5,694 nucleotides of DNA from a virus. Taxonomy: Duplodnaviria; Heunggongvirae; Uroviricota; Caudoviricetes. Under the pieces are notes generated by a model that saw only the letters and a list, made by a program, of their open reading frames with translations, did not search any database and was not told where the DNA came from. The translations under genes were made by a program, and so were the position numbers. Where the stretch lies: IMG/VR virus record IMGVR_UViG_2698536559_000015. The stretch is one strand, 5' to 3'. This document shows, in pieces, positions 1,822-2,492 of the stretch; within the stretch, counting starts at the first letter, position 1, and every line of letters starts with the position of its first letter.

Positions 1822-1850
1822 AAACGGCCTAAGGGCCGTTTTATTCTTCT
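1822..1850 (+). terminator. Rho-independent terminator between convergent Q and the minus-strand operon (possibly bidirectional)
   Basis: Stem 1822-1829 (AAACGGCC) pairs with 1834-1841 (GGCCGTTT), loop TAAG, followed by the T-rich run TTTATTCTTCTTT on the + strand. It lies 17 nt after the Q stop and 1 nt from the stop of the - strand gene at 1841. On the - strand the downstream sequence is less U-rich. Confidence 0.7.
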
Positions 1851-2269
1851 TTAGTAACTTCAATAGGTAAAACTTCTACATTCTTACCAATGTTAACAAT
1901 CTTTCTAACAGTTTCTTCCCGATCAGCAATAAGCTCAGCTTTAAATTTCTCGCTTAGATGAGGGCTTTTCAGTTGCTCATCAATACCTTTTAAATCTCTC
2001 TCAAGGCGATTTCTTAGGGCGGCTTCGGCTGGAGACTCAAGTCCATGTCGATTGATAACATACAACATAATGTAGGTTAGCATTGCTGACACTAATGGGG
2101 CGAGGGCATACAAAAAAGCTCTCCATTCACTATTAGGGTCAGGCGCCAATAGTGGTACCAATGTAGTTAGAACTGCGCCAATCCCGCCTGTTGTTAGACC
2201 AGAATTACTACTTAAAATGCTTTTTTTATCACCGCTCATTATTTGACTGCCTGTGCGCGGTTGCATCAT
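1841..2269 (-). CDS. Small membrane protein, two predicted TM helices plus a charged helical C-terminal tail (holin-like topology); third gene of the low-GC operon
   Basis: Minus-strand ORF with stop TAA at 1843-1841. Hydrophobic segments GGIGAVLTTLVPLLA and FLYALAPLVSAMLTYIMLYVI are followed by about 70 charged residues. Start is ambiguous: TTG 2272, ATG 2269/2266, or ATG 2239, the last overlapping the upstream gene stop by 11 nt. No family recognised. Confidence 0.7.
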   Translation of the reverse strand: MMQPRTGSQIMSGDKKSILSSNSGLTTGGIGAVLTTLVPLLAPDPNSEWRAFLYALAPLVSAMLTYIMLYVINRHGLESPAEAALRNRLERDLKGIDEQLKSPHLSEKFKAELIADREETVRKIVNIGKNVEVLPIEVTKEE

Positions 2270-2492
2270 CAATTAGCTCAACGATCTTCTTTCCATCTTT
2301 AGCATCTAAGTGGATAGTAATCGTTTTTTCAAGCATGCGTTCAGCACTGTAAAACCTTAGTTCTACGATTTTTGTAGGAAAAATTTTACGCCACAACAAC
2401 GCGGAACCAGCATAAACAAAGCGATAGAAGGTCGGGAGACTTACAAGCACCCCCAACCAAAAAACGATTTGTAAAAGCTGTTGCTGAATCAT
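2229..2492 (-). CDS. Small (87 aa) membrane protein with one N-terminal TM segment; second gene of the low-GC operon
   Basis: ATG at 2492-2490, stop TGA at 2231-2229. N-terminal hydrophobic stretch LLQIVFWLGVLVSLPTFYRFVYAGSALLW is followed by a roughly 50-aa polar domain. It starts 15 nt after the stop of the upstream gene (TAG 2510-2508). No family recognised. Confidence 0.7.
   Translation of the reverse strand: MIQQQLLQIVFWLGVLVSLPTFYRFVYAGSALLWRKIFPTKIVELRFYSAERMLEKTITIHLDAKDGKKIVELIDDATAHRQSNNER

Follow-up and report, generated by a model that had tools for sequence, protein, structure and literature searches.

The 5,694-nucleotide stretch of DNA analysed here (IMG/VR record IMGVR_UViG_2698536559_000015; 'the window' below) is a piece of an Escherichia coli lambdoid prophage. 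Between the antiterminator gene Q and three tRNA genes, its minus strand holds three closely packed open reading frames (ORFs), which we call A, B and C. The data show that A-B-C is an obligate, horizontally mobile three-gene cassette of which B and C, both small proteins of membrane type, are the second and third genes. An earlier note on this DNA had singled out B and C as a pair and had overlooked that the pair is inseparable from the upstream 293-residue gene A. We suggest an anti-phage role for the cassette, with A as the sensor and B and C acting at the membrane, a reading to which we would give a probability of about 45%.

Gene B (2229..2492, minus strand) is an ORF of 87 residues with 36 clusters of homologues and no family match, and gene C (1841..2239, minus strand) encodes 132 residues from the ATG at 2239, as defined by the RefSeq start, the alignment of homologues and an AlphaFold2 model. 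These are the two overlapping small ORFs described in the earlier note. Their position is confirmed, on the minus strand, and the overlap is 11 nt (2229..2239, minus strand, ATGAGCGGTGA) and contains the start codon of C together with the B stop codon. The plus strand at 2229..2240 reads tcaccgctcatt, with the reverse complement AATGAGCGGTGA, so that C starts with the ATG at 2239-2237 and B ends with the TGA at 2231-2229. The start of C, which had been proposed conditionally, is supported by the RefSeq annotation, which uses ATG 2239, and by the homologues, 15 of 16 of which start at the equivalent MS(D/G)DKK when aligned. The extension upstream of this ATG (TTG/ATG) is unconserved in the homologues and, judging from these alignments, the longer 143-residue reading of C (1841-2272) is an artefact of the gene caller. 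The ATG of C is preceded only by a weak, distant AGG, which fits coupling by termination and reinitiation.

Homologues of B and C form 36 and 52 clusters, respectively, within the Enterobacterales, extend down to about 50% identity and have adjacent locus tags. In 60 of 61 loci B ends only after C has begun; the two genes share 4 nt (ATGA) in 45 of them and 8, 11 or 14 nt in the others, and the gap between A and B ranges from -1 to 15 nt. B and C have median ratios of non-synonymous to synonymous substitution rates (dN/dS) of 0.28 and 0.32, respectively, and A has one of 0.036, showing that all three genes are under purifying selection. Taken together, the data show that B and C are real, conserved and translationally coupled genes. 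B is often absent from automatic annotation and is uncalled in loci L002-L004, L064 and L071. In comparisons with Pfam, NCBIfam, PHROGs, PADLOC and PDB sequence profiles, neither B nor C had a match above noise.

Hidden Markov models of A, B and C were built and run over all fetched loci. A contig search with the A alignment gave a single locus, and related loci were retrieved by exact-protein look-ups instead. The order A-B-C is present in all 62 loci retrieved via A or C, including L059 and L061, whose A proteins are 35-39% identical, and both the order and the tight spacing were found at every A-family locus examined (more than 70 in total). The arrangement is also kept around relatives of A at 31% and 42% identity (L074 and L077) and on Pseudomonas megaplasmids (L078; 33 plasmid records by tblastn). 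When the C profile was compared with 1.84 billion representative proteins there were 41 clusters at E <=0.001, which are 107-156 residues long and matched over most of their length, with the exception of two fragments of 50 and 75 residues. The distant C relatives P0183 (31% identity) and P0196 (24%) have a homologue of A (E 1e-93 to 1e-114) and a homologue of B just upstream. The weakest match, P0207, adjoins gyrB, has neither A nor B beside it and is probably spurious, and the contig of P0205 is too short to judge. The broad C alignments were too divergent for pattern scans.

Two sets of loci differ from the cassette in the window. E. coli S51 (L071, 933-2447), together with L059 and L061, carries a second, strongly diverged type of cassette at the same Q-proximal site. 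A-B-C is kept in S51, where A and C match their profiles with E values of 6e-59 and 3e-4, respectively, and B is unannotated; the Q gene beside this cassette is annotated as frameshifted. In a siphophage-like region of a low-GC organism (L068, 4498-5471; L069, 2836-3809) a C-like gene of 156 residues is overlapped by 4 nt by the gene for a 168-residue protein, which has a B-like N-terminus (a membrane helix and a strand-turn-strand-helix) and about 90 extra residues. There is no homologue of A in this region. From these two loci, B and C may be an exchangeable membrane module.

In the window, the cassette is a foreign, low-GC insertion after the stop codon of Q, transcribed towards Q and with its own terminator. 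The GC content of the coding block (1841-3389) is 39.8%, in comparison with 51% to its left and 49% to its right. As a query for the empty site we used an artificial junction in which the 3' end of Q was joined to the element at 3477-3575. These two pieces are contiguous in cassette-free E. coli genomes, for example 16F5M1D1, and the window from about 1806 to about 3476 is therefore an insertion between Q and a conserved Q-proximal element. Both composition and the comparison with 16F5M1D1 place the approximate extent of the inserted cassette at 1806..3476 (minus strand). At the empty site of 16F5M1D1 the stop codon of Q is followed directly by AAAATGACTAGTGCGGTCCGCA...GTTAAGAGTGG..., then by a terminator and then by the tRNA genes. 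There is a GC-rich hairpin, AAACGGCCTAAGGGCCGTTT, at 1822..1841, between the stop codons of Q and C. Read on the plus strand, it makes a good terminator; it is missing at the empty site, and so belongs to the insertion. At the other end, the 5' region of the cassette (3390..3476, minus strand) has the Shine-Dalgarno sequence AAGGA ahead of A, as well as a candidate promoter in which the conserved blocks TAGTGATTTT and TGTAAATTA flank a variable spacer. A scan for the sigma-70 consensus upstream of A found no strong site in 3390-3476.

The conserved Q-proximal element (3477..3575, plus strand) consists of the dyad GCGGTCCGC, then GTGTTAAGAGTGG and then a T-run, and is adjacent to Q in cassette-free prophages. 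This region just beyond A is kept among cassette-bearing prophages and is not found in the Hafnia locus. The element is probably the cognate late promoter, Q-utilisation site and leader for this type of Q. With the probable late promoter beyond the cassette, late transcripts would start past the cassette and run away from it. An antisense run of Q-dependent late transcription through the cassette was considered and dropped, because the empty site puts the probable late-promoter region on the far side.

Hydrophobicity was expressed as the maximum of the Kyte-Doolittle scale over 19 residues (KD19), for which the classic cut-off is 1.6. The maxima are 1.56 in B (residues 9-27) and 1.55 and 1.88 in C (residues 14-32 and 41-59). 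The earlier count of one membrane segment in B and two in C stands, but only the second segment of C passes the cut-off and the other two are marginal. The predicted membrane segment of B (residues ~6-34; 2391..2477, minus strand), delimited from the alignment and KD19, contains the invariant residues F11, W12, L13, G14, P20, F22, Y23, R24, F25, Y27, A28, S30 and L32. Column identity is 91% at residues 8-40 in comparison with 62% at residues 41-66. The hydrophobic region is thus the best-conserved part of B, which points to a specific function and not to a plain anchor. Across the family there are on average no lysine or arginine residues before this segment and 4.8 after it, and B is predicted from its sequence to be a bitopic inner-membrane protein with its N-terminus out, its C-terminus in and a small cytoplasmic domain.

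An AlphaFold2 model of C built on a 40-sequence alignment has a mean predicted local distance difference test score (pLDDT) of 85.7 and places helices at residues 11-31, 38-65, 70-90 and 97-115. The first transmembrane segment (TM1, residues 11-31; 2147..2209, minus strand), drawn from the model and KD19, is rich in glycine and threonine and marginally hydrophobic. The second (TM2, residues 38-65; 2045..2128, minus strand), drawn from the model and the alignment, ends in the best-conserved motif of the protein, NRHGLESPAEAA (residues 63-76, 89% column identity). The model and the charge assign the two remaining helices to a cytoplasmic tail (1844..2044, minus strand). The charged C-terminal tail of roughly 70 residues that had been noted from the sequence is indeed present: residues 63-132 include 13 lysine or arginine and 15 aspartate or glutamate residues. 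For lysine plus arginine the family means are 2.4 (N-terminus), 0.7 (loop) and 5.4 (beyond TM2). C is predicted by the model to be a helical hairpin with both ends cytoplasmic and a 70-residue tail of two helices. The distribution of charge suggests that the soluble parts of B and C would both face the cytoplasm.

Gene A (2508..3389, minus strand; 293 residues) is the first gene of the cassette and encodes a soluble-looking protein of the LAPAL / PDC-S42 / phrog_3243 family. It is a member of NCBIfam NF053583, 'LAPAL motif-containing putative phage structural protein' (5.6e-56; 190.1 bits against a cut-off of 60), and it matches phrog_3243, whose function is unassigned there, at 3.3e-58 and PADLOC PDLC05015 (PDC-S42) at 4.1e-27 over residues 5-286. 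No Pfam domain was found in A. The AlphaFold2 model (61 sequences, pLDDT 81) is beta-rich and has a C-terminal five-stranded barrel (residues ~197-285; 2535..2801, minus strand) with the strand order b1-b2-b3-helix-b4-b5; five strands with a helix between strands 3 and 4 make the barrel OB-fold-like. W222 is invariant in all three A alignments, and F211 is invariant among the closer homologues and is a leucine in L059. The conservation of these two residues is suggestive of an OB fold that binds single-stranded nucleic acid. The invariant residues of A look structural and not catalytic, and H21 and D24 are unconserved (homologues at 26-57% identity). On the basis of the model, A is predicted to be a non-enzymatic cytoplasmic protein ending in an OB-fold barrel. 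In a Foldseek search, an uncharacterised Mycobacterium phage Pipsqueaks protein aligned with part of A over 93 columns (E 1.2e-7).

There is also a hydrophobic stretch in A (residues ~84-104; 3078..3140, minus strand), rich in glycine, alanine and serine and followed by basic residues. Its KD19 of 1.55 (residues 86-104) equals that of B and of TM1 of C, and pLDDT falls below 50 within it (residues 91-96). The character of the stretch is kept in all the divergent homologues, at 26-57% identity. It may make contact with the membrane or with the helices of B and C, or it may serve in oligomerisation.

Two independent methods, PADLOC and DefensePredictor, flag A as a candidate defence gene. The PADLOC PDC systems are 145 candidates obtained through guilt-by-embedding in BREX, DISARM and type I restriction-modification loci, and are described as untested (bioRxiv 10.1101/2024.01.29.577857). 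A is by sequence a member of PDC-S42, as it is of NF053583 and phrog_3243. PDC-S42 is filed by PADLOC as a single gene, whereas B and C come after A at each of the 62 loci and in the distant relatives, so a single-gene definition does not describe the cassette. Neither B nor C has a match in PADLOC. The cluster WP_021526742.1, which is the RefSeq accession of A in the window, is listed in Table S10 of DefensePredictor as a 'Putative novel defense gene' with a mean log-odds of 5.78 (range 4.96-7.16; strict cut-off 4) and with no remote-homology or Foldseek match (PMC13092281). Among the rows listed it is in no other DefensePredictor table, and we therefore provisionally take it as predicted and not cloned (PMC13092281). 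The match to PDC-S42 and the listing in Table S10 bear out the placing of B and C by the earlier note as coupled small membrane-type proteins at the end of a defence-candidate operon. A search of main-text literature found no paper with 'PDC-S42', 'LAPAL motif' or the three WP accessions, and the Gifsy GiPD474 and Tai papers are about unrelated proteins.

A homologue of Q lies just beyond C, on the opposite strand, in 59 of 61 loci, and in 42 of the loci with Q beside C there are lysis genes beyond A, also on the opposite strand. The host prophages carry holins, an endolysin and a spanin of their own. A version of the cassette at 99% identity or more is present in only 20 of 5426 complete E. 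coli genomes, and a tblastn search with A against 50,697 deposited phage genomes gave no match. One cassette is located at the edge of a Hafnia prophage. In a Mu-like prophage (L064, 2814-4411) the cassette lies between a virion-morphogenesis gene (PF05069) and a protease gene; it could be expressed late there, which may explain how the 'structural protein' name arose. Outside prophages, the Pseudomonas megaplasmids bearing the cassette are rich in insertion sequences, and in L074 the cassette is part of a mobilisable element of 31% GC with a Mob_Pre relaxase and a serine recombinase. Two unannotated neighbours in L074 are possibly further defence genes. One (9619-11214, minus strand) encodes 531 residues with, in our reading of the sequence, a possible C-terminal PD-(D/E)XK-like motif (EADVVI...FIECKGY); the other (6951-7835, plus strand) encodes 294 residues with hydrophobic stretches resembling membrane segments.

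The nearest analogue of the cassette, in logic, is lambda RexA/RexB. RexA (279 residues, cytoplasmic) and RexB (144 residues, membrane) are prophage-encoded from genes 15 nt apart, resembling the cassette in scale as well as in logic. Both are produced in lysogens, RexA being regarded as the activator of a RexB channel. Homology was rejected, as hhalign gives a probability of 0.4% both for A with RexA and for C with RexB. RexB has four helices, whereas the membrane part of the cassette is split between a one-helix B and a two-helix C, and RexAB is in the immunity region whereas the cassette is next to Q. Prophage defence of the type of mycobacteriophage Butters gp30/gp31 pairs a cytoplasmic protein with a membrane protein, and the likeness to the cassette is one of architecture alone, namely a soluble and a membrane partner in a prophage.

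The anti-phage module might work as follows. The cassette would be expressed from the lysogen or the plasmid. A would be the sensor or adaptor, its OB fold perhaps binding phage nucleic acid or protein, and would dock on the cytoplasmic parts of B and C. The membrane complex of B and C would then permeabilise or depolarise the inner membrane, leading to Rex-like abortive infection; alternatively, it would block a membrane step of infection. It is from their architecture that we infer a role for B and C as pore-forming or depolarising effectors. Tight coupling of the genes, through the A-B gap, the B/C overlap and the weak Shine-Dalgarno sequences of B and C, would set a fixed stoichiometry for a complex that may be toxic. 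A more specific mechanism is conceivable, though in our view rather unlikely: A-B-C may be a new family of infection-triggered membrane switches, a functional analogue of RexAB of independent origin, in which a membrane-docked OB-fold protein, on sensing DNA of the phage or a DNA-protein intermediate, would gate a channel made up of the one-helix B and the two-helix C.

Several points weigh against an anti-phage module. Morons in the interval between Q and the lysis genes also encode functions other than defence. The cassette of the Mu-like prophage points the same way as the late head genes. Insertion of B and of TM1 of C into the membrane depends on marginal hydrophobicity (KD19 ~1.55), and both the docking of A on B and C and the toxicity of B and C are inferred. 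Both defence calls are computational predictions and concern A alone. B and C were not found among the rows listed in the DefensePredictor tables, and the overall validation rate of DefensePredictor picks is 45% (PMC13092281).

Three other explanations are each improbable in our judgement, and to about the same degree. The cassette might bring about superinfection exclusion without killing, A-B-C blocking genome entry or another envelope step at the inner membrane. The proteins HK97 gp15, T4 Imm and P22 SieA are examples of such exclusion. The cassette is prophage-borne and encodes membrane proteins, and the hydrophobic stretch and possibly DNA-binding OB fold of A could meet entering DNA. However, the cassette is found on megaplasmids and a mobilisable element as well, known exclusion proteins are usually single small membrane proteins, and there is no homology to known exclusion proteins in Pfam or PADLOC. 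SieB-type exclusion (P22, lambda SieB; PF14163), in which a small inner-membrane protein of the prophage with N-terminal membrane helices and a cytoplasmic tail aborts the development of a superinfecting phage, differs in that SieB is encoded by a single gene whereas C is strictly linked to A and B; neither C nor any of the 40 family members has a Pfam match to PF14163. Alternatively, the roles may be reversed, with A toxic through its Gly/Ala-rich segment, B and C providing immunity or regulation, and the cassette serving mainly to stabilise a mobile element. The segment at residues 84-104 is as hydrophobic as those of B and C and conserved in character, A is by far the most constrained of the three genes (dN/dS), and carriage on plasmids, prophages and a mobilisable element would suit an addiction module. 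Against this, AlphaFold2 puts the rest of A in beta-rich soluble domains, the pair of a B-like and a C protein without A in L068 and L069 would be odd for pure immunity proteins, and A is the gene that both defence predictors flag. The cassette might also be lysogenic-conversion cargo outside phage conflict, with a role in envelope stress tolerance, as a transport accessory or in host interaction. The interval between Q and the lysis genes of lambdoid prophages holds many kinds of moron, and no domain in PADLOC, Pfam, NCBIfam or PHROGs gives a biochemical hint. The two independent predictions for A tell against such cargo, as does the patchy distribution tied to mobile elements (20/5426), which is typical of conflict systems.

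A holin/antiholin pair, the alternative offered in the earlier note, or another regulator of the timing of the prophage's own lysis, is far less probable. C resembles the class II holins (S21 of phage 21; a 71-residue class II holin in L001) in its predicted topology, two helices with both termini cytoplasmic, in a Gly-rich first helix of marginal hydrophobicity and in its charged C-terminus. The cassette lies near the lysis genes, and C has weak matches to holin models (PF23809, E 0.18; phrog_565, E 0.028). C is nevertheless 132 residues long with a structured 70-residue tail, and its gene is located outside the lysis cassette and the late operon and on plasmids too. Homology to holins was rejected: just 1 of 40 family members has the match to PF23809, and hhalign gives probabilities of <=1.3% against the three resident holins. 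Complete lysis cassettes are already present in the host prophages, and the A-B-C cassette converges on Q and appears to be upstream of the late promoter. Moreover, it is always linked to the gene for a 293-residue non-lytic protein and occurs on plasmids and on a non-phage element without an endolysin among the called neighbours. Least probable of all is a role for the three proteins in virion structure or ejection. This is what the NCBIfam name implies, and head genes on the same strand surround the cassette in the Mu-like prophage. However, in 59 of 61 loci the cassette runs opposite to the late operon, it is carried by megaplasmids and a mobilisable element, and A is absent from the deposited phage genomes by tblastn. 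The label of NF053583 is contradicted by the same three, indirect, lines of evidence.

The rest of the window is made up of prophage genes on the plus strand. To the left of the cassette there are a DUF968/HNH gene (14-1069; ORF list and Pfam), rusA (1070-1447) and, to the right of rusA, Q (1434-1805; PF06530 at 5.3e-52), which is convergent with the cassette. There is an in-frame TGA at codon 19 of rusA (1124-1126), where the intact homologue in L001 has a tryptophan (VNTYWRRRG), and the RusA Holliday-junction resolvase is therefore probably inactive in this prophage. To the right of the cassette are the three tRNA genes (3686-3926, plus strand). The first (3686-3761) is called tRNA-Met (CAT) by ARAGORN and tRNA-Ile by RefSeq, the latter for the aligned part and the equivalent position in related prophages. 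This conflict would fit an Ile-tRNA with a lysidine modification, like those in the tRNA clusters of Stx-type phages.

A TerB-family gene (4099-4531, plus strand) is disrupted in the window by a frameshift after the ATG at 4099, near an A-run, and by an in-frame TAG at 4235-4237; it is intact in an O157:H7 prophage, with 142 residues. Its stop codon is overlapped by the GTG start of a 55-residue hydrophobic ORF (MTVKLRLTVAALLLFLVVMVDF...; 4528-4695, plus strand), which matches in position and size the DUF3927 family protein annotated after TerB in O157:H7 and is another coupled small membrane protein within the window. There is a mosaic breakpoint at 3838/3839, at the end of the tRNA-Lys gene. 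Positions 1-3838 are 93-98% identical to cassette-bearing prophages, and the right part of the window (~3648-5182) matches a different prophage lineage (L054). No single complete E. coli genome covers more than 67% of the window (n=5426).

If the cassette is protective, it would be a compact system without homology to known ones, in which the membrane part is formed by two unannotated small proteins. The findings would correct two database entries, in that PDC-S42 is a three-gene unit and the name 'phage structural protein' is probably wrong. The Q-proximal insertion and the matching empty site make up a natural pair of prophages, one carrying the cassette and one lacking it. Membrane effectors that are small and coupled and have marginally hydrophobic helices would serve as models of the way in which a lethal pore is kept silent until infection. 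Finally, if the cassette were an infection-triggered membrane switch, B and C would be two new families of small membrane-protein effectors, missed by catalogues that file the system as a single gene and spread over prophages, plasmids and mobilisable elements in distant bacterial groups.

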